A program made the position numbers and the translations under genes. Below, one piece after another: positions 3,734 through 36,500 of a stretch of DNA of 64,000 nucleotides. This DNA comes from Antedon mediterranea (Eukaryota; Animalia; Echinodermata). Position 1 is the first letter of the stretch; every line of letters starts with the position of its first letter. Below the pieces are notes generated by a model that had not been told where the DNA came from, ran no database searches, and worked only from the letters and a program-made list of their open reading frames with translations. The stretch covers positions 37,458,304 through 37,522,303 of the forward strand of contig NC_092671.1 of the NCBI RefSeq assembly GCF_964355755.1. Reading direction: 5' to 3'.

Positions 3734-6700
3734 TTAGTTTTCACCGCCAACCAGATTCAAGAGAAGTTTTTTATAGTCACCAGACGTATCACCCTGCAAA
3801 AAAAATCCAACTGTAACTTTTTAACTATATCTAAAAATATAAATACAGTCAACTCTCCCAGTACCGGACACCTTTGGGCTGAACAAATATGTCTGGTTTC
3901 CAGAAAAATCTGGAGAGTTTCCGGTTTTCAGAGTCCGGTATTGGGAAAGTTGACTGTAATACAGTCAAGCAAAGTTTTACAAAAATTCATCATCAGGTAC
4001 TTATAAATTAGATATGTCTTTATGACCTGTTTTCAATTTGAACATAGGCTGTCATTTTTGAAATGCCAGATGGTTAGATTCAAGCTTGCTTAGGATCAAT
4101 TACTGATTTTCTCCTTTTATAAATTATTATTTATTTCACTAGTAATATCAATATCACTGAGCAGCTCCTCTGTTTTCATAAACTTTTTGTTTTCAGGTCA
4201 ATTAATAATAACTCACAGGTAATTTGTTTGGAGGTCAAATGTCAAATTTACATGTTTCTATAGAATTTGACACATAAAGCTGCTTGGTTACTTATGTTGT
4301 TGCGCTGCGTTCAAGTTGGAACCTAGCTTTAAATATATAGGGTTTAAGATTATATATCTGTTTATTGCAATGACAACAGTTAAGAACGAACCTTTCTACT
4401 TAATTATTTTATCATATTTTAGTAAAATATAATATATACTGCTATTAATAGCAAAAATAATGCACAAAGCAACAAACACATATATATATAGATATATATA
4501 TATAATTACACATTTTTGCTTCGCATGTATATATTTTTCCCTAGCATAATATTTCCTACAATTCCCTCTCATTTATCGTTATCGTATGTCATTATTATCA
4601 TCATAAAACAATTGTATAGCAACGAAATAATATATGCCATATTGAGACCATCAGTACAAAGAACACATTAGCCCACCTACACTACTCATGCAAAATAATC
4701 CATGTCGATATAGATTGACTAACTACAATGACCCTCATATTCAGGCAAACAAATCACAGTTTATGATAAGAGAACTTAAACAGAAGTAACGCCTGGGTGA
4801 CATTCTCCCCCTTTTAACAACTATGATGACATTAAAACCACTTTTTGATATCTGTTTTTTACTAATAATGTTATATATTAACATACCCCCATTTAAAAAT
4901 TCCTGGATCCACCCTATGATAATCATCTATATTATAAGTGAGAGATATTGTTCATTTATTTGTTTGTTTATTATACATATTTTTGTTACTGCCACGTAAC
5001 CACACATATAGGTTATCAAAATGATTGCAATTGTACTGGGAAAGTTCTAAACTATATTTGAACATCATCCGACATCTAGGATCAAAATTAGGGGCCAAAA
5101 ATGCCCACTTTTCTCCACTTTAGATGTCTGTACTGAGAAGGATTTATTTTTTCAAGATCACCTAAGTGTAGGATGTGATTGAAGAGGGGTGTAGATTGGT
5201 GAATATAGGGAGATACTGGCATCCAGGGGTTATGACACCTATCAAATTAATCGGAATTGTACAGAAGGTTTTGAAATACATTTAAATTGCTAATAATTGT
5301 ATAAGTAGAAATGTCAGCTATACTTACAGCAATTGTTTTCCCAAGAGATTCCGAATAAGCCTTTTGATATTCACCCTTAATGTTCACCATATCAACCTCA
5401 GAACGTGATATCACAATCCTCATCAATTTATCATCATCTGTGCCGGCTCCCTAAACATATCAAATTATATTAATAACAAAAATATAACAAAATTATAATT
5501 TAAACATATCATTTAAACATATCAGCATTTAAACATATCAGCATTTAAACATATCAAATTATATTGAACAAAATGATCTAACTTTCTAATAAACAACAAA
5601 GATTTTACTCTTAAGCTCTGTTCTGTCTGTTATGTGACAAAAAAATGTGATGTGCCCATATATGGACATGATGATGTCATATCACTACCATAATTGGCCA
5701 TACCACTACCATATTTGGGCACATCACACTTTTTTTGTCAAACTAGTTTGCTTTAGATTATTCTGAACACTATACACTATAAGTTTTGTTTTACAACTAA
5801 CTAGTTTGATGCGCTTAATTTAAATAGCTGAAAAAATCCCCACAAAATCAATCGGGTATTTCAATTTACACATAGTTCCTAGCCAGTGGCGTAACAGCTA
5901 TTAGAGCTCACTGGCTAAACCCAGGGGCCACAGAGCTTAAAATATGTTTAAAAAATACTGAAAACCTCTAAGGCCTCCAGCGTTGCAGGGCCACTTAAGG
6001 TTCCTGAACCAGAGGTCTTAGGCCTCTGTGTTATTCCACTAGCCTACAAAAAATGAACAGTATAAAAACCTTCATCGTCTTGTGCAGTTTGTCGCTGAAG
6101 TATTTGTGTTTGTTGCGGACACATCTCACTGAAAATACAAAAGAACACAAACCATCAATTTATTTTGTTTTATATTCTGGGAAATAAAAGGCATTGGAAT
6201 AAACATGAAATGGAAACCCTTGAAAAAGTATATAAATAAATGACATTACAATAAAATTTAATGACAAAAAACAAGAAGATCGACGTTTCGGAACCATCAT
6301 ATAGTAAGCGTCTATTAATTCATAAATGACATTGTTAAATTAATTCTTTATGGTAATGAGCCTTAGACTAGGGTCACATTTATCAAACATTCTTAAGCTC
6401 TGTCTACACAATCAAACTTTATGTGACAAAAAAATGTGATGTGCCCATATATGGACATAATGATGTCATACCACTACCCTATTTTGGTATATCACTACCA
6501 TATTTAGGCACATCACACTTTTTTTGTCAAACTAGTTTTATTGTGAGAGCTGGGGTCAAATTTTTCAAACATTAGACAAAAAATTATCTTAACTTTGATT
6601 TTTAAGTCTTAGTTTTCAAAATAACTGGTTTGATGAAAGCTTTTTATCACTTTACAAGCTTTATTGCAAGTGGTATTGCAAGAGACATACGGAAGCAGAG

Positions 6701-9700
6701 CCACATTTAATTGTACTTACCAATAGTAAGCATACTGTTTTTAAGATCTCCAGACATCTCTTTCTTAATAGCGACTTCAATATCGTTCTTGGAGATCTTA
6801 GAATATTCCTCAAATGTAGCACGTAGTTGAGCGTAACTGCGAGATGCCAGTATAACGTTGAAGCGAGATTCATCAGTTCCCCACTTATCTTCACCAGCTT
6901 TGAATAAATCCTAAACAAAAGACAGTGAGTGAGAATTTTGTTCATCAATTTGAGAAGCTTAGTGGTGCTTTCCTCTCCAGTAGCCACAAGAAATAAAGTG
7001 GTCCGGTTTTCACAAGAAAAGGGAACAATCTTTGGGTTGTCAAAGGCTTCTGTGAAAAAGTGGTCTTGTTTCCAATCCCAATTTCCTGGGTTCAAATCCT
7101 CTATGAGTCGCATTGTTTTCTAAAACCACACAAACTCAACTTCTCCAAATCAAGAGTTCAATTTTAATTTAATGTTTGCAGCCATGAGCTTTTTCACTTA
7201 AAATCGCAAAATAAAAAGAATTATAAATCTTACGTTGGCATCATTCTTGGCTTTGTCGGGGTCAACGACATCACCTTCAGGACGACTTCCTTGCAAGACT
7301 GACATCAAAATACGTCCAAAGTTGCCTGATGTATCATCTTCAACATCCTCTTCCAAATCTTTGTCATATTCTATAATAATCAAAATATGACTTAAGGTCT
7401 GTCTACACTATCAAACTAGTTTGAAAAAAAAGTGTCATGTGCCCAAATATGCTAGGGTATGACATCATCATGTCCATAAAGTCACATCAAGTTTGATAGT
7501 ATAGACAGGGCTTTATAAACAAGATTGAATTGATGCATGCATGGCATAAATTACTGTATGCACTTAAATACTGTAGTACATAATGTATTACAGTATACAA
7601 CAACATTTATTCAATATTCAATATTTTACAAAGTTTATGGGTTAAGATACACAGAAGCCAAAGTGGCTTGTCTTTGTAGTCCTAAGCATAAACATAAAAC
7701 ATATTATACGGACGCATTACATTAACAAAAAATGACATTTTGAGACAGAAAAAGAAAAAAAAAACACAAACACAACAAAGTGATATTAAGCTAAATGTTT
7801 ACAACCCCAATTTTGCAGTAGCAATAGTAGCTAGCAATATGTTTCAAATATCATCTTTTTAATATTGTACTTTAGCATAGGGAGTGAGGTCATGTGATTT
7901 TGTTCTAGGGTAGACTGGAGTTTATTCCAGTATGTTGGTCCTTCAATAAAAATTGATCTTTTATTAATTTCTAGTCTACTGTGTGGAATATATATCTTAT
8001 TTGCGTTTCTTAATGTCTTTAAGCGATCAGTTTTAGGGTTTAAATCAATCAAGTTGTTTATAGGGATGGGAAGTTCCTGGAGATGATATTTGAACATAAA
8101 GCATGCAATTTGAATTTTATTTATATCGTATATATTTAACATTTTTAAACTTTGTAATAGTGGTTTGGAGGCTGTTCTCATCGGTGAGTTTGTAATCATT
8201 CTAGCTATACGTTTTTGTAATTTATGTATTTTTTCTAAGTTTGTTTGATATTCATTTCCCCATATTATATTGCAGTAATAGAGGTGTGGTAAGCTAAACG
8301 CATTGTACAGATTTAAAAGAATATGTTTAGGAAAGACGTGTTTTACCTTGTAGATGATACCAATGGATTTAGCGATTTTATTTGAGATGCAGTTTATATG
8401 GGGTTTCCAACATAAATGTTCATTTATATGTATTCCGAGAAACATAACTGTGTGTTCTCTTTGTAATATTGATTTGTTAATTTGGATTTGGGAAGTAATT
8501 TCAGGGATCTTTTTTTGCCGAGGTCTAAAAATAATGTAGTTAGTCTTATCGATATTTAAAATAAGTTTGTTTGTCATAAACCATTTATTAATTTTTGAAA
8601 GTTCAATATTCAATGTGTCTATAAGATTGTTTATATTATTATCACTCATGAAAACAGTGGTATCATCCGCAAAGGAAATCACGTTTATTTTATCACTTAC
8701 TCTAATAATATCGTTAACATAGATAAGAAATAACAAGGGTCCAAGGATGGACCCTTGCGGTACTCCACATTTAATATGTTGGAGTGATGATTTGGTTTGA
8801 TTTATTTGTACAAATTGCAGTGGGTCTATTGCATATATTCATAGTGAAAGATATACTGTTTACACACACCTTCCTCATAAGCTTCTTTGATTGCCTCTAT
8901 TGAGCTGTTTGTTCGAGTACAGAGAATCTCAATCAGTACATCTTCATCTGTACCAAGTCCCTGGAAAGAGAACAAAAAATAATCATAAAATCAAAACTCT
9001 ATTGAGTGACTATAGAAACTCTTATTGAGTTACTGTAGAACATCCATTGAGTAACCATGTTATAAAATGTGTTACTTACTTTGATGGCTTTGTTGAGTTC
9101 ATGCGCATCATACTTTTCAGGAGTCATCATCAAACCCGTCAACATTGTGAGCAACTTACCGCTAACCTCACTCTTAAATTCCTTCATCAAATCCTATAAA
9201 TTAAATATCGGACAAAATCAGATTTTACAGGGCTTAGGTCTACATCTTTTCCATTTGAACAATACGTTGATTTATTAATACTACCGTATATCTTCTGGTA
9301 TTATCTCACCCTCTAGAATACAATATTAGGCTGACTTTAGGGGGTGGGACTATACCCAGAGAAGCCCTGGTTCAGGAACAAAATGATTGGTAAGCATTTC
9401 TTGTAAAAACTTATCTTTACTGGCTGGAGAGGCCTGTGAAATCAGACATAAAGTAGGTGGGATTATACCCGAGGATATACGATATTATCAATAATTTTAA
9501 AACCCATCTTGAAACACACTGGAAAACCCACAACCTAAAGTTTGAGCCATATAACCAAGATGTTCAAAGACGGACTCACAAACCTTAACAGGTATATAGT
9601 CTAAAGGTCAAGGTAAAATTATTCTATCAAAGTAACTGACCTTGCCAAACATTTGTTTGAATTGTTTAGCAATCTTCTGACGTTGATCATTTGACCTTTG

Positions 9701-9817
9701 ACTTATAATATCAATGATTGTCTTTTCATCAGTACCAAACCCTTTCATGGCCTTACGCAGCTTTTCAGCATCACCCTGGGGGTCAAAGTTCTTTACCGGA
9801 GTTACTATTCCTTTATC
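3734..9817 (-). CDS. Annexin core module (4 repeats) of the fusion gene
   Basis: [10 protein letters not shown]...KSEVSG, IKGLGTDE...[15 protein letters not shown]...KKEMSG, MKGAGTDD...GDTSG: four type-II Ca2+ sites, each with its acidic cap residue. Exon sizes 114/91/59/123/60 nt are typical of animal annexin genes. Confidence 0.97.
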
Positions 9818-12800
9818 CTACAAAAAAGAATTGATGTTCTATTTAATAATAGTTTTGGTTAAATATTTACCTTAAACAGAATAAACAATTTTATATTTTA
9901 CTCTCGTACTGTAATCATAATTATTAGCAACAAATTAATAGATAGTGTACCTTTGGCAACTTCTCTTTGCATGACCTCTGACCTTCTTTTAGTCTTCCAT
10001 TTTCCTTCTCCTTCTTGTTTTTACTTTTATCTTTATTATCTTTCTTTCCTTTACCTTTACTGGTCATTTTGTCCAGCATCTCCTGACCCATGGATGAAGC
10101 AAACAATGATACTGTACTCTCATAACCACTTTTGACAGCTAGGTCATAGGGCGTGTCACCCTTAGCATTCTTGACCTTAGGGTTGGCATCATTCTCCAAT
10201 AACATTTCAACAAGCTCTTGTCCATCTGGTCCAAGAAGAACAGCTTCATGCAGAGCAGTGTTACCCTTCCTGTATATAAAAAAAATGTACAGTTAAAACA
10301 TCTATAAAAACAAGCCAAACCATTCAAAGAACATATACCTAGACAAAGACAGTTTTCAGGGTATAGTTCACTTGAATCTAAATTTCTGTCTACACTATCA
10401 AACATTATGTGACACAAACATGTGATGCCATATACTGTATGGACATGATGATGTTATATCACTACCATATTTAAGCATATCATTACCATGGGCACATCAC
10501 ACTTTTGTCAAACTAGTTTGATAGTGTAGACAGAGCTTTAAGCTATAAACACTTTGTTGAAATTGTTTATGTGGCTTTACCTGGCAGGTGCCTTGGTGTT
10601 GACCTCTGCTTCGACATCAACCAGGATAGCAACAGCATCTATATGGTTGTTCATTGTGGCTAGGATTAAGGCAGAGGTGCCATCTTTGTTTTCACAATTA
10701 GGGTCTGCTCCCTAAAAACACAAAATTAATCAATTCAATTTAAGTAAAATTGATGTTTCAATCTATATATTCAAGAACACATCGTAATATCAAATATAAG
10801 CACATGCTCAAATCTTAAGCACATACAGTACATCTAAAATATAATTTAAACACCCTAACGTTGTCATACAGGTATATAATGTGTACATACTAATGTTTTG
10901 TATCAATGTGCAAAGTCTAAAGCTTTGTTTACACTATCAAATTGGTTTGACAAAAAAAGTATGATGTGCCCAAATATGGTAATGATAGGCTCACATATGG
11001 TAATGATATGACATCATCATGTCCATATGGGCACATCACATTTGTTTTGTCTCATAAAGTTTGATTGTGTAGACAACTTCAAGGCTTAAGAAAAATATCA
11101 AGAGAGTCTACTATGGTAAAATATACTAAGCGGGGGAAAAAAATACAGGAAACTTACTTCGTCTACTAAATCCTGAACAACCTCTTCATCACCATCTCCG
11201 TTAGGTCCGACCTCTTTAATCAGTTTACGATCTTCTGGGGTCAGTTTGTCATTATTTTGTGATGACAATAACTTTTTCTTCCCAGTTTTCTTGGTTCTTT
11301 TTACCTGTTTGTATGGTGAATCTGCAGAAAACAAATTAAATTTATTAAATTTAAGTCAGGTTTTATTTTGAGAGAGACTATCACTCTAAAATATTTTGCA
11401 ATCGTTAATTAAATTAACTTATAGAAAATAATGTATTTATTAAATGTTCTGTTGAATAAAAAACAAACATTACCTTCTTCTTGTTGAGCCAGTTGTTTAG
11501 CAAGTATTGCACCTAGAAATAAAAATTAAAACAATATGTGGTAATGATTTTAATATTTTCACTAGGTTTTTGTAGGTTAGGAGTATGTAAATTGAATTAT
11601 TTTTATTATATTGTTAATGTTTTCTACTGAACCAGTTTGAAAAACAATGCTTTAGCACTGAAAATGTCATTCAGTATAAAGACAGAATAAATAAATAAAT
11701 AAATATATTCTGAAGAAAAGAAATGGTATTTTGTAATAAATATATAAAATACTGTAAGTAAAAAACCAAATTCCATACTTTTTCTAACTTGTGATGCCCG
11801 AGTGGCTTTTACATTGTTGTCACCTCCTCTGGATTCAAAGCTTAAGACCAGAGTTACATCAACGCCATCATCATCAATCTCCAATGATGTGATCTGAAAT
11901 GCAGGCGAAAATATTAAACGGATGTTCACTTGATGGTAACATTATGTCTAACATCTTACAGAGGTTGAGTGTTAAGAAACTTTCAGAAAGTTAAGCCTAC
12001 TAAAGCTCTGTCTATCAACTTTATGTAACAAAAAATGTGATGTGCCCATATGTGAACATGATTATGTCATATCACTACCATATTTGGGCATATCACTAAC
12101 ATATTTGGGCACATCACACTTTCTTTATCAAACTAGTTTGATAGTCAACTTTGCATATCTCAACAGCTACATTGTTCAAGAGGAGTACAGAGGCATACAA
12201 TTTTTTTTTCAAATTTGTATTGAAACCTCTAATATTGATTAAACCCATTATTAATCATCATGTTACTAACGAGAACAAGTGGTTATGATGACAAGACAAG
12301 TTCTAACCTTTCCCATTCTCGGCTTCCCAACTTCAGCCCTAAATTCCGAGCTTTTCTGAGTGTACGCTTCTAGATGAGCACATATATGAGCAATCTGTTT
12401 TTTCCAGTAACCTTTCCCTGGGCTTATGTCAATCAAGTTAGGCATCATCTTAGTCTGACTTGGACTATCTTGTACCATTCTATCAACATTGTCACGTTGT
12501 TGTTTCATCACCTGCTCTTGAGTTGGATAGAACAGACCTACAGTCTGCGTACCGGTCGACTGATTTAGAACGGCAGGTAGCGGCAGTGAAAGAGGGCGCC
12601 ATCCATTTACATCCAATGACTGGAAGTATATCAGAAGCATTTCAATTCATATTATTGTTGTCATGTAATTTAATGTACTGTACTGACTACAATAGGCCAA
12701 TTAACTACTGTACTTTCTTCAAAAGCAGTTACCAACCGTCTCGCATTGTGCGGGACGGTCCTGCATTTCAAACTGATTTTTAATAAAAGACGCATTTTTA

Positions 12801-15800
12801 ACAAACACATGCATGACCACATATTTGTTACGCATTTAGCATAAAGTATATGCATGATCATTTGTTATCACTATTTGAGAGGAAAATGCATTCAAATTAA
12901 ATAAAACAGTTATGCGAGTATAAGTTAATAAACACCACCCATAACAAATAATTTGTGTCTGAACTCCCCCCCAACCCCGTACAAAAATGGTGTAGTCTGT
13001 CATGCATTTCAAATCTCTCGGGTTGGTAACTATGTCAAAAGCAGTTTGTTATGGTTTTACCACATAATGAGTTAAATACACTTACGTTGACTTGGACTGG
13101 AGGCTGTACCATTTGATGCTGAGGTTGCTGGCTGGCACGAGGACTAACATGAGGCTCATGCATATGGTAACTATTAAGAAAATATAAACAGTTTATTTAA
13201 TAAATATAATAAATAGTTTGTTGGAAAATGCACATTTTTAAGCTCTGTCTACACTATCAAACCTTATGTGACAAAAAAATGTGATGTGCCCATGATGATG
13301 TCATATCACTATCATATTTGGGCATATCACTACTATATTTTGGCATATCACTACTATATTTCGGCACATCACACTTTTTTTGTCAAACTAGTTTGATAGT
13401 GTAGACAGCTTAAGCAAAAATTCACAAATAAGTATACTTACTGGAACATATAATCTGTACCAGCGCCTCTGGTCTGCATAGGTGGTACGGGACTCGTACC
13501 TCCCCATGCTTGGTATGGCATCATAGGGGCCTGTGTACCCATCATGGGGCCTTGTGTACCCATCATAGGGTTGTGCGAACCCATCATAGGCTAAAAACAA
13601 AATTCAAATTAGTTATTACAAATTTGCACAATCTTCTCAATACATATTATTGATACAAACATATGTTTAAACACTATTTAAATGACATTAATAATAAAAT
13701 AGAATTTTGATATAAGACAAACGCAATATAAATACTTACATATGTTTTTGCAACTGGATATTTGTTTGTAGATCTTGACAAATCAATAACACCGTCAATA
13801 CTTTCATTCAATCTCTGTAAAAACCAAAAGTAAAGCTCTGTCTACACTATCAAATATGTGATGTGCCCATAAATGGACATGATGATGTCATATTACTACC
13901 ATATTTGGTTATAGCACTACCATATTTGCAGATGTTTGATGTGCCAGCCAAACCATGGGCTTGCAAAACAAGGAAGACCAGCACTCACATACATTGATGT
14001 ACTAGAGATGGATACTGGTATGCAGAGAGATGAACTGTTACAATGGCAGATAGGAAGTTATGGAGTAATCTAGTCATATAAGTTGGGGTATGTCCCGGAC
14101 TAAGTAATGCAGAGAGATGAACTGGCTGTCACAATGGCAGATAGGAAGATATGGAGTAATCTAGTCATATAAGTTTGGGTATATGTCCCAGACTAAGTAA
14201 TGCAGAGAGATGAACTGGCTGTCACAATGGCAGATAGGAAGATATGGAGTAATCTAGTCATATAAGTTTGGGTATGTCCCAGACTAAGTAATGCAGAGAG
14301 ATGAACTGGCTGTCACAATGGCAGATAGGAAGATATGGAGTAATCTAGTCATATAAGTTTGGGTATGTCCCAGACTAAGTAATGCAGAGAGATGAACTGG
14401 CTGTCACAATGGCAGATAGGAAGATATGGAGTAATCTAGTCATATAAGTTTGTCCCGGACTAAGTAAGTAACAGATGCTAAGTGATGTATTAACGCACCT
14501 TTGATTGGTTTCTGTGACTTCTCCTTGAGTCCATGATAAAACTCTGATCATCATCCTCGTTGTTGTACTCCGTATCAGGAGATACATACTCCACCATGAA
14601 TGTCTTGCTAACGACATCACTTTCTCTTAGACCATTGCTGTAAATACACATTAAATAACATTTGTAAATACTGTGTAGTTTTCGTATCTGTCTGTCTTAT
14701 TGAGTCAAATATAAATATAATCCTGCCTTAACTTGTGTTAAGCAAGGAAATCTAACAACAGGATGCTAAGCTCCTGAAATCAAAGGGTTTATCTGTGGCT
14801 GCGACACGATCAGTTCCACACACCTTAACAGACACCGCTCGCCGCAGAGAATATGTACATAGTACAGCACTGTTGGTATATGTCGCAGCCAGACATAAGA
14901 TCAAAGGATTGTTACGAGTTCCTATCTTGGCAAGGCAAGCTCAGTGTCCTGTTGTTAGATAGCCTTTGGGTTAAGTAAGAAGCTGAACACTGTTTATAAA
15001 TATTAACTGAAATTTATATTGTATCTTAACCTTCTAACTTTAAATATTTTTACATTTTAATATTTGTATGTGTACTTTACATGTGTACAGTAGCATCTTT
15101 TAAACATTTATGTAATAAGGCTTTATTGTTTTACATTTTGCTCTGTTCATGTTTTTTTTCAGGTAGTTGGTTGCATTTATTTGATTTTGACATATTTTTA
15201 TTTTATTTTATTTTATTACCATCTTTACTGAGGGTAGCCTATCCAGTTCCTAATAGAACTGATCATTCAGGGCCCATGATAAAACATACATACAGTACAA
15301 CACATAAAATATTAAATATTCAAATGACATAAAATATATATAATAGGCCTATAAATTTACAATGATTATATAAAATTCATATAGAAGTTAAAATCGTTGA
15401 CAGATAAAATATATATACATAGTACAAACAATATTAACTGGAAATAAATTCTTTAAGTTCACGTTTAAAGGAAATAATATTTTCAGATTGTCAAATGATT
15501 TTAGGAATCATATAAATCAGCATTGGCTACCAGTATGATATGAGGCTGCATAGATCCTAAAAGAATTGGGTATAAAAAATAAACTATCCTGCCAACCTTG
15601 ACACTGCAATGCTTTTAATGACTCGTTTTCCTTTGTTTAGCAGGAATGGTCCCTTGTAGCGAATTGTTGATTTGTCAGATTTGTTGAAAGGAGCTGGTTT
15701 ATTTCCATTTGTGGTGAAGTATACAATAGATCCGGATGTATCTGTAAAAAGCAACAGTAAAATTGTTTAAAATAATCTAAAACTAAATTAACTTTACGAC

Positions 15801-16455
15801 TAGTGACCTCTGTATACATCTGACGTCTCACTATCTTAATATTAATACTAATTAAGACATGGATTCACTAAAGCTACACTATCAAACAAGTGACAAAAAA
15901 GCATGAATGTGCGATACACAGGGTACAGCAGCAAAAGAAGCTGTAATGAAGTCATAAGACCGGATGTAATGTCACATACATATCAATAACCTCGCTACCA
16001 AATACGGTACCATCTTCGAGACGCGATATGGCTGCATCCGGTTTGAAATTTAGCTTTGAGGACGTGTCCCTGTAGTATATTCATGCCAAATCCCAGCTCA
16101 ATACTACAACGAATAAGGGAGGAGTAGTACTTTATAAATCACACTTTTACTCAATTAGTGTCCAGATGGAAGAAGAAGAGAAGATGAGAGAGTACTACCC
16201 CCTACCCCGAGTAAAAAGTGTGATGTGCCCAAATATGGTAGTGATGACATCATCATGTCCATATATGGGCACATCACATTTTTTTGTCACATAAAGTTTG
16301 ATAGTGTAGACAAAACTTTATTTTTAAATATTTAATTTTTTACCAGATTTTATTTCAATCAAAGTGTTGGTGTCAATTTGGTTCCCACTTTGTCCTGAAT
16401 GAGGAATACGCAGGGGAACGATTGTTGGCACAGAAACTCCTCCTGCAGACGGCAT
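3734..16455 (-). CDS. DZANK1-like / annexin fusion protein, 20 coding exons, ~911 aa
   Basis: Exons 5'->3': 16344-16455, 15597-15741, 14499-14637, 13740-13814, 13442-13590, 13086-13170, 12308-12619, 11779-11893, 11474-11512, 11158-11321, 10581-10711, 9951-10269, 9641-9817, 9080-9193, 8870-8960, 7234-7370, 6721-6910, 6070-6128, 5328-5450, 3734-3793. All junctions are GT-AG with compatible phases and total 2736 nt without an internal stop. Starts [18 protein letters not shown], ends [20 protein letters not shown] non-coding first exon has its donor at ~16891. Confidence 0.8.
3846..3956. mobile_element. Tc1/mariner (pogo/Tigger-like) MITE
   Basis: TA|CAGTCAACTCTCCCAGTACCGGAC ... GTCCGGTATTGGGAAAGTTGACTG|TA: 24-bp TIRs and a TA target duplication. 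Confidence 0.75.
7590..8815 (-). mobile_element. 5'-truncated CR1/L2-group LINE (C-terminal half of RT plus 3' UTR) in an annexin intron
   Basis: [20 protein letters not shown]...FADDT...FLGIHI in and just upstream of ORF 7831-8736, which is open to its stop. The 3' UTR has a stem-loop (~7650-7690) and an AATAAA. Confidence 0.9.
9284..9483. mobile_element. TACCGTA-type (Tc1/mariner-like) MITE
   Basis: CCGTATATCTTCTGGTATTATCTCACC ... GGTGGGATTATACCCGAGGATATACG inverted ends. Similar style of element at ~38080-38260 and ~43697-44055. Confidence 0.55.
9951..16455 (-). CDS. DZANK1: DZANK1-like module (N-terminal Fn3-associated/CHB_HEX_C-like domain, conserved middle block, C-terminal ankyrin repeats; zinc ribbons absent)
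   Basis: Blocks recognised as DZANK1-like: [128 protein letters not shown]. Confidence 0.9.
12727..13034. mobile_element. hAT-like MITE with 8-bp TSD
   Basis: Ends AGTTACCAACC / GGTTGGTAACT, flanked by TCAAAAGC at 12719-12726 and 13035-13042. A 5'-end fragment of the same family lies at 36423-36505. Confidence 0.7.
13935..14471 (+). mobile_element. RTE-type LINE 3' end whose last ~91 bp is repeated 5 times in tandem
   Basis: Translates [34 protein letters not shown]([10 protein letters not shown]), an RTE C-terminal motif. (TAAG)n tail. CAGATG flanks both sides (13929-13934, 14472-14477). Units start at 14020, 14107, 14200, 14291 and 14382. Confidence 0.75.
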
Positions 16456-17014
16456 CTTTCTTTTTTCAAATATAATTTAAGTCCTAAATAAAAGAAAAAT
16501 TGTAACCAATAAATTACATAATTTTCTGGAGCCTCATTGCTAAATATTATTATTTAATAAATGTTAATAATTTTTTTTTCGTCTTTTCACACAACATTCC
16601 TTCAGGCAATTTATATTTTCAACATTTAGTCATAATCATAACATACGAATTAAATTTAATTAGCGGCCTGTGTCTCCGTTTATCTAAACAAGCATGCTTA
16701 CTCGTCAACAGCAGCTATGCTGTACTGGCGGTGGCTAGCCAGGTCTATCAACTGCACTGACTGAGCGGCTTAGCATCTTAGCAGGTTGAGCGTACTCAAC
16801 TAACTAATCATGGATAGTGAATAAGTCCGCGCCTACCTCAATCAATAAACATGACTTAAATATAATAATTAAGGTAAAATTAAATACTTACAGCCGTCTA
16901 GTTTTCACACTTAAAGTTAACAAACACACCTAGCTAGGCCTAGCCGTTCACTTTGGTTCGTACTCAAATAAAATTCCACTAAATAATCTAACACACTTCG
17001 TGAAAGAGGACAGA

Positions 17015-18984: not shown

Positions 18985-21900
18985 ATGATTTACACAATAA
19001 CTGTTCTCATTTGGATGGTCGGACGCTTCCTGGGAAGTTTTTGGCCAAAAGATGACGAATCTGCAATAGGTAAACATTTATAAATACTTAAAATGTTGCA
19101 TTTTATGTTCAGTCTCTTGCAGGCGGCGTACCTGGATAAGCTTTGTGCAGTATACTCGAAGTAGTTCAACCCAACTCAGCTACTTACCAGGTACAGTATG
19201 TGATGCAGAAACAGATCCCGAAGGGGGAGGGTGGTGCCACACTGAGGCAGAGGTAGATCAAGAGGGGCCCCATTTGGAAAGTTAAAAGGTTGCAGGATTT
19301 TTTATTTCAGGACAGCTCGAGTCCCATCCCATATTGATGTCGCCTATCTATTCCCAACATCATTTTTCCTGGTTCCTGGTTCGGTCCTCAGGGATGTCGA
19401 TGGGGAATTGACATCATAATCAGTTGCACAATTTAAAAGCCATCTACCAACCCCTATAATCAACCTAATTCCTATACCTAAATAAACTGAACCAATTATC
19501 TCTAAATAATTTTCTACTCAACAAAAATCGTTTTTTGTTTGTTGTTAATCACCTTGAAAGATGTCAATGTACATACAGAAATATGGATCCTCTGTGTCAT
19601 GCACAAAATGACATGAAATGGCCATGTCAATGGGTATACCAAGTTTTAAAAATGTGACATAAATAATAAAACTAGCTCATTTGTAATTGCCTAATTATGT
19701 GTTTTTTGCTAGATAAAATAGAAAGATATCATCCTACCAGAGCAGAGCAACCATTGGCCGGCAAATTGCCAGATGAAGCGGCAACATGCAGCAACATAAA
19801 AGTGACTGTGGTTGGAGTAGGACAAGTTGGAATGGCATGTGCCTTTAGTCTGATAACTCAAGTATGTAAGGCTTTATATCTATCACACCTGAATAGATTC
19901 TTGTCATTTGATTGGATGCTTGTGGGTCACATGGAGTTTAATAGACATACTATCAAACTCTGATGTCAGAATTTTTCTGGGCAAATTATGTTTAATATTT
20001 GTGCAATAGGGCAAATAATTTCACTCGATGGAACATAAAATTATCTATTTTTATGAGGCGATTGAAATTATTTGCCTCATTGCACTAATAAACATATGAT
20101 TATTTGTATAATATACAACCTTATTGCTGCCAATGTTCAAATTTAACATGGGGCATCATTCTAAGTTAAATCTTTTTTTTTTGTATTCACTTCTTAAAAT
20201 GGACTGTTTCTAATTTATTGACCCAAAAATTTATGGTTTTCATGATTTCCTTTTGAAAATCCTTAAATATTCTGGCTTTGAGAGAATTTCCTGTCTATAC
20301 AATTATCTTTTACAGGGTGTATGTAGTGAACTTTCTCTTGTTGATGTGGTTGAGGATAAGTTAGAAGGAGAAGTACTTGATCTACAACATGGCTTAGCTT
20401 TTCTTAAAGGAGTCAAAATCAGTGGAAGTACAGGTCAGTAAGTGTCTGCAGTTGCAAATGATAACAGAAGTACTGGACAAATAAACAGAAGACAAAAGAC
20501 TAATCCTTGTAGCTCAACTACTGTAAATAGCAAAAAGACAATGGATCTGTGGTTATTCAAAATAAGTAAGTGAGCGGTTAAGACAGTGGAACTGTCTCAC
20601 TTGCTCCATATTTCTTGTGGTAGAACGAGTCTTCTTGGATAAGGACTATAAACCATAGGTCCAGTGTACACATCTAGCTCTTGTGCACTTTAAGAACATA
20701 GCACATCTTTCGAGATGAGTAGGGGGTTACAGCCACTGTCACTCACACATACTGGGCACCTGTGGGAGAACTACTGAACAGGCTTCCCAGTATAAAGAAA
20801 TAAAATAATTATAACTTGGTTTATATTATTTGCAGACTATCGAGTGACTGCTGGCTCAAAGTTGTGCATAATCACTGCAGGTGCTCGTCAGAAAATTGGT
20901 GAGAGTCGCCTGAACCTTGTGCAAAGAAATGCAGATATCTTCAAATGTAAGGACATAGTTGTTTCAAATTAAAATAATCATTAAAAAGTTATTAATTATT
21001 ATATTAATTCAGAGTAATTTAAAAAATGTCTATAAAATGTGTAAAATTTGCATTTGCTCAATTCAATCAATTTGTTTTTGTCTTCTGTTTAAAGGTATTG
21101 TTCCCCAGTTGGTGAAGTACAGTCCAAACACTTGTATACTAGTGGTCAGTAACCCAGGTATGTAACAGTAATGTTTTTTATTTGTGTGTTTACTTAGGGC
21201 TTTAGAACTCTGATAATTGACCAAAACCAGTCATACAATTCTTAAATCTGCATTGTATCCATTTTATTTACTAAAAATCTTTTTTTTTGTCATCACAAAA
21301 GTTGACATTTTGACGTACATTACATGGAAGTTGAGCGGATTGCCTAGTAACCGTGTGTTTGGGAGTGGTACCAACCTAGACACGGGTCGTTTCCGTTTTT
21401 TACTTGGAAAGAAGCTCAACATTTATCCGACAAGCTGTCATGGGTGGATCATCGGGGAGCATGGTGACTCCAGTGGTAAGAATTTATTTTGTCCTAAAGT
21501 TCTGTCTACACTATCAAACTAGTTTGACAAAAAAGTGTGATGTGCCCAAATATGGTAGTGATATGCCCAAATATGTCCATGTATGTGCACATCACATTTT
21601 TTTGTCACATAAAGTTTTGATAGTGTAAACAGAGCTTAAGATTAGAAGGTTGGACTGTTTTCATCGGTGTTGGTAAAAATTCAATTTTATATAACTTCTT
21701 TTTGCTTTTGATCAGTTCCTGTTTGGTCGTCTGCTAACGTAGCTGGGGTGCCGCTTTCTTCACTCAACCCCCTAGTTGGTAGAGAGGATGATGACCAAGA
21801 TCATTGGTATGGCATCCACAAACAGGTTGTTGAAAGGTAAATTAATTTAGATATGTAGATATTAGATATGATATTAACCATTTCACTGAATTGGGGTTTT

Positions 21901-27480: not shown

Positions 27481-27514
27481 AGTAAGTTTCTTAATTTATT
27501 CTTTATACTTAAAT

Positions 27515-30500
27515 TTATTCTATATCGATAGTAGATTTAGATATTGCAACTGATGCATCTTCCTTCTTATCTTCATCCTCAATAAGTTCCTCAGTTTTTG
27601 CATGACCATTACTCATTTCTATGTTGTTTTCTATTAAAACATCCGTAGAATCTCTATTATCTTTCTGTTGAAGTGTAAATGATGTTTCCCCAATTTCAAG
27701 ATCACCTTCCATACCCGCAGTCCCTACATGACCGTTGCTCATTTCATTTTGTTGAAGTGTAAATGATGTTTCCTCAATATCAATTTCATTTTCTATACCC
27801 CCAGGCCCTACATGACCATTACCAATTTCTACCAAGTTTTCAATTGAGGTATTTGCGGATCCTTTTCTTTCTTGAATGAAATTTGATTCAAATTGTGCAA
27901 AGTTCAGATCCCATCGTTCTTCTGGTTTCATGATCTTCATGCTCACAAGATTAACATCTGCACGTGTCGTTGGAGCCTCACGGAATGTTCCATCCTTGCC
28001 CACAATTGTTCGCAGTACTTTATTCCTTTGTGAAGTAATAACAAAGTTTATATTAATAGTAGGAGGAAGGACTTATGCTCTGTCTATTATCAAACTAGTT
28101 TGACAAAAAAAGAAAAAAAAAGCTTTGTCTACACTATCAATCTTTATGTTCCCATATATGGACACGATGATGTCATATCACTACCATATTTGAGCACATC
28201 ACACTTTTTTTGTCAAACTAGTTTGATAGTGTAGACAGATGATGGGTGACGAGTAAAATGTGGAGCTGTAGCTTGGTGGTTAAAGTGCTTGCCTTCCAAT
28301 CCTAAGGTCCAGGAATAATTCTGACCTAGTGCCAGTGTTGTAAGTCATGACTCTTTCAACTCCACTCCCTAAGCCTCAAATGAGACTTAGTTTATAAGCA
28401 TGATAAAGTATAAAATAGTTTATTCATCCTGTAATTGGCGAGTTTGTGCTCGCTGTTAGATGTGTATGAAATAAAAAACTTAAGTATGTACTTACTTTGT
28501 ACGATAACTGTAGACCAATATAATCATAACACCAATGAGAAGCAAGATAATTAATCCCAGTACAATGGAAATAATGACAACTTCTTTATCTTTCTCTTCA
28601 CTATCACCTTTACCATCATTTTCACTATCTGCTAAGAAAACATACCAAAATAGCTGTATAACATGCAGACATTTATAACACATAGAGTAATAACAGTCCA
28701 TTCAAAGATCATGAACTTAAGTTTATTTTGATAAAGTTTATAAATATGACTGATACAACGTATTTATTATTAAAAGTTAAAATAATTTGTACACTTCTAA
28801 AGCCCTGTCTACACTATCAAACTAGTTTGACAAAAAAAATGTGATGTGCCCAAATATGGTAGTGATATGACATCATCATGTCCATATATAGTCACATCAC
28901 ATTTTTTGTCACATAAAATTTGATAGTGTAGACAGAGGCTTACAGTGTTATCTGCCATTACATCTCTCAATGAAAACAGAAACTAACTTACTAAGTGTAA
29001 TAGGTTCAGAGTAGAGTGTATCTGAATAGTAGTCTGTGTTGTAGTAGCCTCTGAATTGGTATCTAAAACAAGAAAACAAAATTTATGCAAATTACAATAT
29101 GAACTATTGACAAACATTTAAACTGAATATTGTTGCTTGTTGGTTTTTATGGAAATCTTAAAACTCTGTCTACACTATCAAACTTTATGTGACAAAAACA
29201 TGTGATGTGCCCATATATGGTATCATATCACTACCATATTTAAGCATATCACTACCATATTTAAGCATATCACTACCACATTTGGGCACATCACACTTTT
29301 TTTGTCAAACTAGTTTGATAGAGACAGAGCTTTAGGGTTTTAAAGTTTTTTTAAATTAATAAATAAATAACTGTTAATTTTAACAGTATGAGCAGTGCAT
29401 TTTGTCCACTTACAGTACTGTACTAAACACACAGCACATAGGCAGAAACAAAAAGTAGTAAATTGTTCTAGTTGGAACGATATTTCTTTTAATTTAAACC
29501 ACAATTTGAATGAACAGAAAACTTACACATAAGTTTTTCCTGGCTTCAGTGGTCCATTACAGAAGGTAGTGGCAGATGCAGCACTGCAGTCAACAGAGCC
29601 AACATTTATGGTAACATCTGTAGCACGTTTTTTACGATTACCAGCTAATAAAAAGGAAAAACCAATATATATATATAAGTGCCTGTTTTTTTAGGGAGAC
29701 TAATTTAGGAATAGTTGGCTGTATCATTCAACACTAGGAATACTAACAACATAGAACTAGAACTAGAACTTGAGGCAATTAGACTACATCACCATACTAA
29801 GTGAAAATAAATCGTCCATTTTTTCTTATAAGTTTTACATACCATTTCTTACAATGCTGTAGTCAATGGGTTCACTTGTCTGATATCTTGGGGTTGGGTT
29901 ATTGTTGATTACCTGGCCCCAGCTTGGTAGCGTTGCATCCTGGTATGCCCCTGTTTCACCCCCTTTTGAATCACCAATTGCTTTAAGAAAATATATTTAA
30001 ATTAATTTGATCATTCCAATTATATATAAGTAGAATTAATATTGTGTAAATACTTTATTTGTCACTCTCATAACATAATATAAAAAAACTTCATTAACAA
30101 ATATGACAAAAAAAACCAAAATAAATCAGCTTTCGCTAATTGAGATTTGGCCTTTAACGTAAAATGCATTAATTATTTATGGTAACATTTGTTCTTTTTA
30201 GACATTAGTGCCATGACTTCAATTACCGTCATTGAATATATATATGCGCTATATGCGTAAATTGTATTACCATGTGATGAAATATGACCAAATTTGGTTT
30301 AATTATGATATATGCTTGTGAATATGATTCCTAACTTGATTTCATTAAATTTTTGATTGCGCACCATGAAAATCTAACCACATTGATTCCATGGTCATAA
30401 GGAATATACTCTGAAAAATTGACATAACTAGATGAAATTGATTTCAAGATAATTGACAGACAATATAAACATTAAGCAAAGAATAAATAAATAAAGATTC

Positions 30501-33500
30501 TGACAAAATCAATAAGGTCTTATAACCTTTAAAATATGTAAATAGAAACATATACCTTGTTGTTCAGCTACAATGATAACAAATGTGGAAACAGGCCCAT
30601 TATCTTCGGAAAACAGTAAGTCATTTATAGACACAGTGAAAGATGAATTAGTAATGGAATTTTCTGCAACCTTTTCTGGTTTCATTGTACTGGGCTCAGG
30701 TTCTGCAAAAAAAATTTGTTTAAAACCTCTACTAAAAATTATTATTTGTTTAAAACCTCTACTAAAACATTATAATTTGTTTAAAACCTCTACTAAAAAA
30801 TATTATTTGTTTAAAACCTCTACTAAAAAATATTATTTGTTTAAAACCTCTACTAAAAAAATAGTATTTGATTAAAATCTTTACTAACAATTTGCTCAAG
30901 ACATGGTTAAACTTTCCAAAATTCCTTTAGAAGTAATGCTAAGAAAGTTAAGTTGAGAATAATATTATAGAGAAAATCTAAATTACCATTTGGTGGAATA
31001 ACACTAGAGATATATGCTGAAACTCCAATATTGTCAGCATTTTTGGCCTGGATCTGTAATGACAATGACAACTTATTATATTTTAGATGACAATTTCAAT
31101 ATGACAATAACAAATAAAATTACTGATTTAATTAGAGAAAAGGGGAAAATTCCAGAAGCAAATGCTTATAAAAGAAAGAACCCAATAAATATACACATGA
31201 GAAAAGACAATAATAAAAACTTTTATGAAAATGAAGATGATTTTTATTAGATAGTAGTAATGATGATGCTAAAAATTATGATTATAAAGCTCTGTCTACA
31301 CTATCAAACTTAACAGGACAAAAACATTTGTTGTGTCCATATATAGACACGATGATGTCATATCACTGCCATATTTGAGCATATCACTGCCATATTTGGC
31401 CACAATTTTTTGTCAAACTAGTTTGATAGTGTAGATAGAACTTAAGGATAAAAATGAAACAGTGAAGGTTCATATGAGAATAATTTCCACAATTATAATG
31501 ATTGACACCAAATATGAATTTGATTATTGATACTGCATACATATATTGTTTAAAGGTTTGCATGGTGAAATCATATGTTGATATAAGTTAGTGCAGTTAG
31601 AGAAACTCAACAGTTCTTTTCAAAACTAATATACGTGATGTACCGCAAACTTATATCAACAAATACTGCATGCAATTTTTTTTAAAGTGTTTTTAACTTA
31701 CACCTTGATTAAGATATTGCATAAAATAAAAAGTGTTTTTAACAAATGTATTTCACTTACAACAAATGTATAATTATAACCAGCAAGAAGGTTTTCATAC
31801 GCAACCACTGTTTGATGAGCATTAAGTAACCTCACATCCGAATCACTTGGTAATCCCTGTAAATAAAAAATAAAACTATAATATAACTATAATATATAAT
31901 AAGTATAACAAATCACTCTTTTGCACTCTTAAGCTCTGTCTACACTATCAAACTGAATGTGACAACAAAATGTGATGTGCCCATATATGGACATGATGAT
32001 GTCATATCACTACCATATTTGTGCATATCACTTCTATATTTGGGCACATCATAATTTTTGTCACATAAAGTTTTATAGTGTGGACAGAGCTTTAAACACG
32101 ACCATGCTACATATTATTCGGCATCAAAGTAAATTTGTTTTTCCTGTTGTCGTGGGACAACTTGTCATCGCAATGGAGACAGCACTTCGTATAAAGTTTT
32201 TTCTGTGTTTCGTATTGTTTTGCTATTTCACAATTATAGTGATAACATGAGTGCTTTAGAAACAGATATTTTTGTACAAGAAACAGAAATACTAACTGGA
32301 AATTCTCCAATTTTGTTAATAGTGTAGGCCTCTATAACCCCAAATACTTCCAGTGGAGGATTGAAAGTTACGACTATTGTTGATTCTGATTGTTTTGCTG
32401 CTACATTTGTCACTGGTCCTGGAACTGAGGGTAAAATAATTGAAAAAGTAAATTTATGTGATAACTTTTTTATATGTGCAATATTTTGTAAAATTTTACA
32501 CAATTTAGCCTTTGGCTACAATGTAAATTTTCGTTTTATTGAATAAAACCTTGAATCCAAAATCCCTTTTGTTTAACAGTTTGTATGGCGAATAAACTCT
32601 AGTATTAGTAATTAAGTTTTCAGATTCAGATTCAATTTATTAAGTCATTCATACATAGCATAATTACTAACTTATTGTTGAGAAAGTTTGCTTACACCAT
32701 GTTTTTCAAAAAGAGTGCTGTACTGCTTACCTAACTTTACTACGATCATAATACTTGTATGTATGTAAAAACACAAGTTAATACATTCTAACTATATATA
32801 ATTATTATGTAAATAAACCTTGTGGAAAAAAATACAAATTATACCATAAACAGAGAGAAAATTATGATTAAAGGTTGTTTGACCCTTGGAAAAAGAAAAC
32901 AATTATACCATGTCTTTCAACACTACCTCACTAAACTACATACTAATTTGCATACAATCACATTTACATATGAATGAATATTCATGATGTTTAATTTACA
33001 TATTCATTTTTATACTTACTCCCTTGTGAAGTGGTTATGGTTCCTACAGTGTCAGCACTTGGACTTGTTCCCGCGACAGCAGCCAATGTCACTGTGTACT
33101 CCGTGTAAGGTAGTAAATCTTTAAATGTATAATACGTTGAAAATTCAGATAGAGTTGGTATCTCAGAGTCAGACGGTTGAAGGGTAATGACGTATCCATC
33201 AAAGTCGCCCTCGGGTTTGTCCCAAAACATCGTAAAACCGGATGAGGTTATCTGAGAAAATCGAATATCCTCAATCGCAATTGGAGCTGTAAAAATAAAT
33301 GGTATAAATTGCATTAATTTAAATCTGCTTGTTGATTTAAAAAAATTATTACAGCTTGAACAAGCTGTAATACGTATCAATCTCTCGATATATTACATGT
33401 TTTTACTCACACATACCCAACCTGTGAGAAATCTCGAGAGAAAGCATAATTGGTGAGCTATTTGATTACTATGATTGGTCAATTTAATACCATGGGCAAT

Positions 33501-36500
33501 ACATGTGTGCGCAATAACAACTCGAGATATCTCGTAACAAAAACAGGCCTCTCATTGGTGTGTTTTTTCTCCCAATTTACAACAAAATTGTAGTCACACT
33601 ATGCAAACCTGGTTACAAGTTGTTAAATTTTGCAGATGTTCAAAAGGGTATAGTTTTAGTCTGTATAATCTATAGTAAATTTGAATAAATGGCAATTGTT
33701 GTTAGCAATTCATGTTATTGATTTTGTACTTTTTTCTAAAGGATTGTAAAGAATTAAAGCATGAAATATTGTTGCTTACTTGTCGTTGCTGTTATGTTAA
33801 AAGGTGAACTCCTAAGGCCTTCAATTTCTGCTACTACTTGTATGAAATACTCTGTACCAGGATACAGATCAATCAATTCAACATCAAATATTGAGACTGA
33901 GGCTAGCCGGTCATGCATGACAACTGTATGGTTGTCCAAATCGGATGACATCGCTGTTACATGGTAAAAACATCCTGTACAGTCGTGGTCTCTGATTTGA
34001 ACGGTGATAGAGGACGTTGTAACATGCAAAATGTTAACGTCTTCTGCTGGTTCGGGAACTAAATAAATCAATTTATTTTTCGTAATCAAATAGAAACATG
34101 TTAAGGAGCCTTACCAATACCAGGGTTCAAATCATATCAAAATCCCAGGATTTCTCTGATGGCTAATCCTATAGCCAGGGATTCAAAGAGCAAACCACAT
34201 TTTTTTCTGGTGCACTTTTTAAACTAGAGACTATACAGTAGCAGCAAATATGATAAATATATGCTTAAAACTAGCATAAAGGCCAATTAACACACACAAT
34301 GAGTAACGGTAAGCGTAAAACCGCGTAGCTTGTCCTACATAGTATCTATATCCTCAGCGCAACCTGCCTGTACGCTCAAAGTTGTGTGTGCTAGTCATAA
34401 GGAATATAGATTCCATATTATTATTATCGTTACCGCTCATCAGTGTAATTGACCTTTGATAATTAATTTTTTCATTTTTTTGGGAAAAGAGAAAGCCCCT
34501 ATAGATAATGAATTTCTTACCAGTGTATATAAGGAATATCTCTTTTGTAGAGTCCTCAAACCCTTGTCTTTCAGTGTGTACGGTTACAAATTCTGAAGAA
34601 CCTGAATTCAATTCACTAAAAACAACCAATTGTTCAGCATCACTGGTTCTGGTATGTGTTACACCACAAAAGCAGGATACAGTAACCATGTCATATAGGC
34701 CTTGAGGTGGGGTCCACGACAACATGACAGCAGTGGTGTTTGCTTTCTTTATAATGTTTGTAGCCTGTGCTAAAGCTGTTTACGATAAAAATATACAGGA
34801 AATTTAATCCAAATCCTAATATAGGTCATTCGGCATTTCTGAGCCTGTTACTAACAAACGGGTTATTGATATTACATGGTCTCATACAAAGCGTATTTGT
34901 TGATAAAAAAAAATGTAACATATAGCCCATAAGTATCTCCGGACACCTGACCAAATTCAGGGTCAGCGTGATCAATTAACAGTGTTTTCAAAATGTCATA
35001 ATCATAGTATCTTTAATTTAATATTAAAAAGAATTAACAGAAATTTGTTTTAAAAACTGGCATATCATATATAAATAAAACAGTAAAATACACAAAAAAA
35101 GTGCACCAATATAGATTAACACTACAACAACACAAAAACAACACAATTCTCAAATTTCTCTTGTTTTTTAACAGTTTGTATAACTAATTTATTTTTTTTT
35201 TTTTTGAAAATTTATTATGGTATAAAACAAACTATGATGATCAACAGGCAGCCGAAAGCTGAAAACGTTGAACTTACAAAAATACAATTGGGATAAAAAG
35301 TAGAGACTATACAGTATATATAAAAATATGTTCAATTAAAAATTCAGTAAATATAAGAAAATGATGTAACAATCAATTAATCAATAGAAACTTACTTGTC
35401 TGTTGAACAATCTCAGCTGGTAGGCTAAGCACTCCATTTCTTTCAGCCACGACACTTATATTGTATCGTGTACCAGGTTGTAATTGATCAAATCGCATGT
35501 CAAACGTTGTCTGTGAGCTTTCAGGTTCAATTGTAACAGAGCCTAGCGTTTGGCCTAGCTCTGATGTTGGTTGTCCTATGTATTTACAGCTCGTACACGT
35601 TGCATCACTCAGTGTTACGACAATAAAATCAAGTCCTGCACTGTTTGCGGATTCAACAGTAGGCGTGTCTGGAACTGAACAAAAATAGTAGTTACAACAT
35701 AAATTAATGTTACAAACTCAGTCATGTGTGGACCAATATGTTGACCCCGTCATCTGGAGGTCAACGGTGACATATTCCCCACTACGCTTTGAGAAAGCCA
35801 ACTGATAGTTGGCGAAACGTTATTTTTACTTACTGTTACAACCTGCAGTTGAGATATAATTAACGATTAAATTTTAAATTAATTTATATTTTGTGCTTGA
35901 GAACTTGGAATTAAAATAAATTATATACATTAACATTTCAACAATTATAATATATTTACTTACTTGTTGAGGGTAGTAAAGCAATTGTTTCTGAAATACT
36001 CTCTTCATTTAAAAATGTTTCAAAAGTGATAAAATAAGCTACTCCGGGTGATAGGTTTGTGTATATGCAATCAGGTACGTCATTGGTGTAGAAATCCTGT
36101 ACTTTATCATTACTGCAACTTCCACAAGTAACTCTTACTAAGGTGTAGGTATCGGTAGGAGGCGTCCACATCAGCCTTATGGATGTCTGATTCACTTCAT
36201 AAACAATATCCCCAACCGATGTGGTCACACCTATAAATGATGAATATCAATAATATATAATTTTCAATAATGAGATCAAGTTCGTCGGTAAAATAACTTG
36301 CGTGTCAAGACAGTTTCACCAAGCTGTCAGCTAGACTTTGTAAGTTGTTGTGTGTATAATTTTCAGTGATTTAATATATCTATCTAGCAATTACAGTGTG
36401 TTTTTACGAACAAATTCAGTAGCATAGTTCCCAACCGTCTCGCATCGTGCGGGATGGTCCAGCATTTCAAAGTGATTTTTAATGAAACACGCATTTTGAA

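Follow-up and report, generated by a model that had tools for sequence, protein, structure and literature searches.

A DZANK1-family protein fused to a complete annexin in echinoderms and hemichordates

Introduction

The 64,000-nt stretch of the Antedon mediterranea genome analyzed here (contig NC_092671.1, positions 37,458,304 to 37,522,303; the window) raises the question of whether a DZANK1-type sequence and an annexin that follow each other on its minus strand make up one gene and, if so, where that gene came from and what its product might do. A sequence-only reading of the locus had proposed that 12 exons of a DZANK1-like protein splice in phase 0, across a 133-nt intron, into a complete four-repeat annexin, and that the product is a Ca2+-switched tether. 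We find that the fusion gene is real, that it is spliced and that it encodes one polypeptide.

Gene model and splicing across the fusion junction

The gene was rebuilt on the minus strand from 16455 to 3734. It has 20 exons, GT..AG borders at 19/19 introns and a coding sequence of 2736 nt with a single stop codon, the terminal one. The computed product has 911 amino acids (101 kDa) and is identical at every letter to the RefSeq A. mediterranea protein XP_071943392.1 (P0001). Pfam assigns this protein Fn3_assoc at residues 33-99, Ank_2 at 434-523 and four Annexin repeats (PF00191, E 4e-92), with no match to the zinc-ribbon domain DZR (PF12773). The rebuilt model bears out the arrangement first read from the DNA: 12 exons, the phase-0 intron 9818-9950 and then the annexin, in eight exons.

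Four of the five sequencing runs that contain this stretch were compared over 9050-10750. None is recorded as RNA, and one of them, X1, is a putative RNA run whose status was guessed by the tool. Positions 601-1336 of X1 contig 1 (1336 nt, depth 17) correspond consecutively to 9079-9192, 9640-9816, 9950-10268 and 10580-10705. Exons 14, 13, 12 and 11 are joined back to back across 9951→9817, with more than 31 letters on each side of the fusion junction; the bridge over this junction, which the earlier reading had named as the place to look for reads, is a contig and not a long read. Exons 15-19 together come to 600 nt, the length of the rest of the contig; this correspondence is by arithmetic and not by alignment. 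Three intronic bins have no depth at all in X1, and the fraction of words that it contains, 0.26, is near the 0.31 share of 31-mers wholly within exons. The contig has eight exonic differences, seven of them tabulated; six of these seven are synonymous, and the seventh, C589Y, gives the Tyr found in orthologs. The runs X2-X4, from one sample, span introns and are DNA-like.

Two alternatives bear on this evidence. An annotation or assembly artefact that fused two adjacent genes is highly improbable. Every ortholog is a computational gene model, as such an artefact would have it, but the spliced X1 contig crosses the junction, the X2-X4 genomic contigs span the fusion intron, and the identical join recurs in independent assemblies from five echinoderm classes and two hemichordates. 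The artefact is largely refuted. It is also improbable, if less so, that the fused locus yields mainly two products, by an internal start (Met549/553/557), by early termination past exon 12 or by cleavage of the basic linker. Such an outcome is favored by the in-frame Met codons of exon 12, by a stop reached after 8 codons of intron read-through, by a disordered and poorly conserved linker and by the loss of rare variants from contigs. Weighing against it are the zero depth of X1 in the intronic bin 9848-9904, the one unbranched contig that crosses the junction, the 28 of 28 annexin-bearing stored records that are fused forms, and an in-frame join kept across 15 species.

Exon 1 (16344..16455, minus strand as are all that follow; residues 1-37) starts at the codon at 16455 and holds an N-terminal DZANK1-type segment, matched in tblastn with a canonical DZANK1 (P0126, described below). 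The Fn3_assoc/CHB_HEX_C-like domain (Pfam E 7.7e-07) lies in exon 2 (15597..15741, residues 38-86) and ends in exon 3 (14499..14637, residues 86-132), which adds an acidic patch. Exons 4-6 (13814-13740, 13590-13442 and 13170-13086; residues 133-235) form a Pro/Met/Gln-rich low-complexity region. A TQT motif (residues 259-261) of the kind that anchors LC8, a helix and the first part of the DZANK1 core are found in exon 7 (12308..12619, residues 236-339), and the core beta-hairpin in exon 8 (11779..11893, residues 340-378), whose boundary, the sole doubtful one, is settled by an in-frame donor at 11779 in phase 1. Exons 9-10 (11512-11474 and 11321-11158; residues 378-445) carry a basic linker and the start of the ankyrin region, and exon 11 (10581..10711, residues 446-489) an ankyrin repeat recognized as Ank_2 and spliced in the X1 contig. 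Exon 12 (9951..10269, residues 489-595) contains the last ankyrin repeats, the end of DZANK1 homology (at about residue 557) and a charged linker, within which the Lys-rich segment proposed to join the halves is present at residues 560-578. The fusion intron (9818..9950; 133 nt, GT..AG, phase 0) is skipped by X1 contig 1 and covered by the X2-X4 contigs. Exon 13 (9641..9817, residues 596-654; Pfam Annexin, 4e-18) opens the annexin core with the Ca2+ loop of repeat I, and its first Met, M619, is already inside that repeat. Exons 14-20 (9193-9080, 8960-8870, 7370-7234, 6910-6721, 6128-6070, 5450-5328 and 3793-3734; residues 655-911) encode the remaining annexin and the stop. A strong splice donor on the minus strand at about 16893-16930, upstream of the start codon, together with an acceptor at 16484, suggests a non-coding first exon.

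GT-AG introns interrupt both halves, 11 in the DZANK half and 7 in the annexin half, in keeping with the proposed genomic, intron-bearing fusion. A retrocopy or processed chimera would have an intron-less donor half, which is not what the gene shows.

The annexin half

The annexin half was claimed to be complete, and it is: Pfam finds four repeats (PF00191 x4), and the model matches the top four-repeat annexins in Foldseek (template modeling (TM) score by target 0.93-0.95, root-mean-square deviation 1.6-2.0). Rat A11, A7 and Hydra annexin XII (TM 0.94-0.95, about 50% identity to the fused annexin) share with it the complete core and the type II caps. The difference from these annexins lies in the N-terminal tail, which in the fused protein is a 595-residue multi-domain DZANK1 derivative. 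The scores of possible annexin donors are nearly tied (A11 339.9, A7 335.1 and 6b3i 332.5 bits) and single out no subfamily.

The type II Ca2+ site is given as GxGT-(38)-D/E (as quoted in PMC3487801). Repeats I, II and IV carry the canonical site, and repeat III reads K-W-G-T with an E cap at the same 38-residue spacing. Acidic caps at this spacing are present in the four repeats of 14/14 orthologs. All four sites had been described as GxGTD with an acidic cap; the caps are indeed all intact, but repeat III, as KWGT, departs from the description.

The exons of the annexin half measure 177, 114, 91, 137, 190, 59, 123 and 60 nt. The core exons of human ANXA5 measure 85, 95, 114, 91, 80, 57, 94, 96, 59, 123 and 60 nt. 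On these lengths the seven annexin introns presumably lie at vertebrate positions, and the fusion intron falls at what we take to be within a codon of the phase-0 intron that precedes the core. If the ANXA5 lengths are right, this match would indicate that a genomic annexin was captured through its own acceptor.

Relationship to DZANK1

The fused protein has the Fn3-like N-terminus, the TQT motif with the core, and the ankyrin repeats of a DZANK1-family homolog. It resembles human DZANK1 (752 residues) and the Antedon canonical protein (P0126) in all of these, and is 44% and 37% identical to the latter over two shared blocks. The differences are in the zinc ribbons and the C-terminus. CxxC motifs number 10-11 in 28/28 canonical DZANK1 proteins and zero in 13/13 fused proteins. 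Canonical DZANK1, with 10 CxxC motifs, ends in a short C-terminal tail; the fused protein has the linker and annexin instead. The region of exons 4-6, disordered and with a predicted local distance difference test score (pLDDT) below 50, sits where canonical DZANK1 has its zinc ribbons. The canonical zinc-ribbon DZANK1 of Antedon, XP_071963794.1 (P0126), is on a contig separate from that of the fused gene, and the matches listed include at least 12 canonical DZANK1 records from echinoderms and hemichordates. The separate canonical gene that the earlier reading had suggested seeking was found in Antedon itself. Because the zinc ribbons are gone and a separate canonical DZANK1 exists in the same species, the 5' half is, as judged from its sequence, a paralog and not an ortholog of DZANK1. 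The label "DZANK1-like" holds in the sense of a family homolog, but one that is without the double zinc ribbon.

The Fn3, core and ankyrin blocks that the proteins share (41 rows, 366 columns) were used for a tree under LG+G4, in which a fused clade (100/95) is separate from an ambulacrarian canonical clade (99/93) and the base is not resolved. Sister to the fused clade (99/99) is a protein of the acorn worm Glandiceps talaboti, XP_078000769.1 (P0200, 628 residues), which is like the fused proteins in its TQT motif and loss of the ribbons and unlike them in being without an annexin and in having an acidic-Phe tail. It is a third DZANK1-family gene in this acorn worm, on a contig equal in length to the one that carries canonical Glandiceps DZANK1. 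Since its tail resembles that of the canonical proteins, 19/27 of which have a final Phe, the sequence favors "never fused" over "annexin lost", and P0200 may preserve the pre-fusion state. P0200 stands on a long branch (0.67) and is a single predicted protein, so the order of events is only inferred.

Topologies were tested after removal of five long-branch or distant rows (P0209, P0212, P0221, P0251 and P0268). A constraint that groups the fused proteins, P0200 and the ambulacrarian canonical proteins was not rejected (approximately unbiased test, p-AU 0.65; likelihood 3.97 above that of the free quick tree). Descent from the ribbon-less snail proteins of Nucella and Batillaria was rejected (p-AU 8e-5; groups chosen once the first tree had been seen). 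The zinc ribbons were apparently lost independently in caenogastropods (P0015 of Nucella, P0196 of Batillaria) and in a clade that groups with Ciona (P0251, P0268).

Distribution and conservation

Relatives were drawn from protein databases and not from a genome scan. A search with exon 7 against longer proteins gave 16 matches among 47 candidates, 13 of them with both ankyrin repeats and an annexin, and DZR was absent in all 13. These 13 come from 10 named echinoderm species, two hemichordates (Ptychodera and Glandiceps) and one partial record; of the three matches that lack an annexin, one is a fragment, one comes from a snail and one from a fluke. Cluster look-ups add fused genes of S. purpuratus (LOC587473), Lytechinus variegatus and Asterias amurensis. 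In total the fused gene is known from 15 species, which include two hemichordates and represent every one of the five echinoderm classes; their shared architecture is Fn3-like domain, TQT motif with core, ankyrins and four annexin repeats. No fused Saccoglossus record was found in the protein databases.

A phmmer search of 50%-identity representatives returned 197 matches, and among the best 150 of these only the Asterias fusion has an annexin. None of the best 120 of 820 zinc-ribbon DZANK1 matches has one. No annexin-bearing relative from outside Ambulacraria is among the matches listed, in which representatives hide members. These results suggest that the fusion is absent outside Ambulacraria.

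The annexin is the best-conserved part of the Antedon protein: its identity is 74-77% with non-crinoid echinoderms and 67% with hemichordates, where the core reaches 63-66% and 45-47%, respectively. The Fn3-like, core and ankyrin parts are 63-70% identical among echinoderm classes. Linker identity is 4-27% outside crinoids, with only the basic, charged make-up kept.

RefSeq and UniRef name the fused proteins "uncharacterized", "Annexin", "Annexin A7" or "DZANK1-like", names that flag mis-annotation of the fused gene. No description of the fusion was found in the open PMC and bioRxiv full text covered, a scope that excludes subscription journals and possibly surveys of atypical annexins published in them. 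The open full-text papers that name both DZANK1 and annexin are, by title and start of abstract, unrelated omics studies, and five identifiers that designate the fused gene, by locus or by accession, are absent from the open full-text papers checked. The ESM Atlas lists DZANK1, ankyrin and annexin clusters only (first match 0.89), small clusters being outside its listing. The supposed novelty has to be restated, since the fusion is not local and stands in the databases for 15 echinoderm and hemichordate species, while no paper describing it was found in the full text covered. It is ancient and combines two known families in a new domain architecture. As such it is a rare domain join, so far in echinoderms and hemichordates only, with a candidate intermediate.

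TQT motif and structural models

The TQT motif is near-invariant, with T, Q and T in 118, 120 and 124 of 125 aligned rows, and is retained in 13/13 fused proteins. The monomer model of the core (residues 241-395) consists of helix, helix, beta-hairpin and helix (pLDDT 72; predicted TM score (pTM) 0.38). Foldseek found no match for it in the PDB at E<=0.001, and the best hits of a VIA search (Z 3.1, cyanase C-terminal regions among them) are too weak for use. The whole-chain pTM of 0.39, with confident ankyrin and annexin domains, fits separate modules. Fully extended, at 0.35 nm per residue, the two linkers would reach roughly 30-35 nm. PDB entry 11XU contains four chains of a 752-residue DZANK1.

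A proposed Ca2+-gated tether and its alternatives

What might such a protein do? We put forward, at slightly less than even odds, that it is an LC8-paired, doublet-docked and Ca2+-switched tether of transition-zone doublets to the membrane. The TQT motif would bind an LC8 dimer and so pair two chains, as human DZANK1 binds LC8. The helix and core past the motif would dock on the outer A-tubule surface, to which DZANK1 and LC8 dimers have been assigned in bovine cilia, and two annexin cores would be held outward by the ankyrins and by two flexible linkers of about 55 and 40-50 residues. A rise in Ca2+ would make the annexins bind anionic lipid, whether in the ciliary or periciliary membrane or in docked vesicles, and a fall would make them let go. 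The gene may have arisen by duplication of DZANK1 in the ambulacrarian stem, loss of the ribbons from one copy and capture of an intron-bearing annexin via the phase-0 intron.

The proposal draws on work with DZANK1 and ANXA11. In the available part of PMC4617706 (Dona et al. 2015), human DZANK1 binds DYNLL1/2 and is found at the basal body or ciliary base and on microtubules. In bovine transition-zone doublets, a DZANK1 dimer and an LC8 dimer have been assigned to the outer A-tubule surface at A06/A07, according to the accessible portion of a preprint (bioRxiv 10.64898/2026.06.11.731632). ANXA11 is a precedent for an annexin as a tether (reviewed in PMC13341712, from excerpts): it links RNA granules to lysosomes, its N-terminal part gripping the non-membrane partner while the annexin binds membrane in Ca2+. 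The fused protein would share this design, but differs in that its partner-binding part is a folded ciliary scaffold, the predicted partners being LC8 and microtubule doublets.

Several points weigh against the proposal. The splicing evidence is one contig from one run of guessed RNA status and directly covers exons 11-14. Some fused isoforms lack the N-terminal Fn3-like domain (770 residues in S. purpuratus, P0019/P0021; 745 in Ptychodera, P0013), although they still carry the core, ankyrins and annexin. TQT is the usual LC8 anchor, yet insufficient for binding, as stated in the portion of PMC6607443 available. The preprint, in its accessible portion, bases the A06/A07 assignment on AlphaFold3 models fitted at 4.7-5.0 A and does not name the DZANK1 residues that contact tubulin. 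Targeting may require the zinc ribbons that were lost, and canonical DZANK1, which is still present, could fill the ciliary site.

The earlier reading had set the tether on a scaffold linked to NINL and cytoplasmic dynein-1. NINL binding was mapped to a zinc-finger fragment of human DZANK1 (residues 244-317; PMC4617706, available part). The link to NINL and dynein-1 is weakened by loss of the zinc ribbons that carry the NINL site and was probably not carried over, whereas the LC8-type motif was kept. The Ca2+-switched tether would survive as the likely function without that link, and the retained TQT motif and core fit a place on transition-zone doublets better than they fit NINL and dynein-1. 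We regard as unlikely a cargo adaptor, whose annexin would hold vesicles in Ca2+ and whose DZANK half would use LC8 to hitch them to cytoplasmic dynein-1 and so bring them to the base of the cilium. Vesicles do pile up in zebrafish dzank1 morphants and DYNLL1/2 co-purify with DZANK1 (both from that part of PMC4617706), and the TQT motif is retained. However, the NINL-binding zinc-finger region is absent, the same part of the paper reports association of DZANK1 with light chains only, and LC8, in the sources as far as accessible, is a general dimerization hub and no proof of a dynein link.

We give a similarly low chance to a non-ciliary dimeric annexin, in which LC8 and the core serve for dimerization only, the resulting pair of annexin cores bridges membranes in repair or exocytosis, and partners are brought in by the ankyrins. 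The better conservation of the annexin than of the DZANK half speaks for it, as does loss of the zinc ribbons with canonical DZANK1 left for the ciliary job. The identity kept by the Fn3-like, core and ankyrin parts among echinoderm classes nevertheless exceeds what a bare dimerizer would seem to need.

A bolder form of the doublet-to-membrane tether, which we hold to be doubtful, is a Ca2+-switchable Y-link-like protein of echinoderms and hemichordates. Here a DZANK1 duplicate would have given up its zinc-ribbon partner site and gained an annexin, and would fasten transition-zone doublets to the membrane of the cilium in response to Ca2+, possibly to brace the base in ciliary reversal or to seal it once a cilium has been shed; the unfused Glandiceps paralog would be a pre-fusion step that has survived, and the fusion would mark Ambulacraria at the molecular level. 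Accounts of the links between transition-zone doublets and the membrane treat them as structural, and assignment of their parts has only just begun. That a member of a transition-zone scaffold family has been joined in nature to a membrane binder that depends on Ca2+ points to regulation of such a link, which could be examined in embryos of sea urchins or sea stars, whose cilia can be stripped and regrow. Another hint from the fusion is that DZANK1 of vertebrates and free annexins may act together in trans.

Sea urchin data allow some comparisons. AnkAT-1 (SPU_024961), an ankyrin-type protein linked to apical tuft cilia, is probably a different gene from the fused one: identity of the two is unsupported, and AnkAT-1 is set apart by a listed mass of 57,228 Da and isoelectric point of 8.69 that match no sea urchin fused record. 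The five annexin entries of the sea urchin ciliary proteome (PMC3812683 Table S2) are not mappable to LOC587473 and count neither way; the same is true of the apical-organ annexin SPU_019139.

Other features of the locus

The introns of the fused gene hold copies, in both orientations, of an element of 150-190 nt that is like a miniature inverted-repeat transposable element, has inverted ends and contains short repeat units (at about 5630-5750, 6390-6550, 7395-7500, 10375-10540, 10910-11075, 12015-12150, 13235-13410, 13840-13960 and 16210-16320). Its summed contig depth of 1e5-1e7 at 10361-10588 indicates that it is very high-copy in the genome. Annexin intron 15 contains, on the gene's own strand, a 335-codon open fragment of a reverse transcriptase of the long interspersed nuclear element type (7831-8838, minus strand; RVT_1, E 2e-14), and intron 3 about four tandem copies of a 91-93 nt repeat (14035-14457).

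Lactate/malate dehydrogenase exons lie head to head with the fused gene at about 19680-21520 on the plus strand (Ldh_1_N weak, Ldh_1_C E 4e-06). Many fibronectin-III-like exons at about 27500-40400 (minus strand) likely belong to a receptor tyrosine phosphatase-type gene, the family being our inference. Exons of a likely ROCO-type gene extend over about 45350-55990 on the plus strand, with weak, sub-cut-off COR-A and COR-B matches at 54734-55990, and an integrase-like fragment (51646-52374, minus strand) lies within its span.

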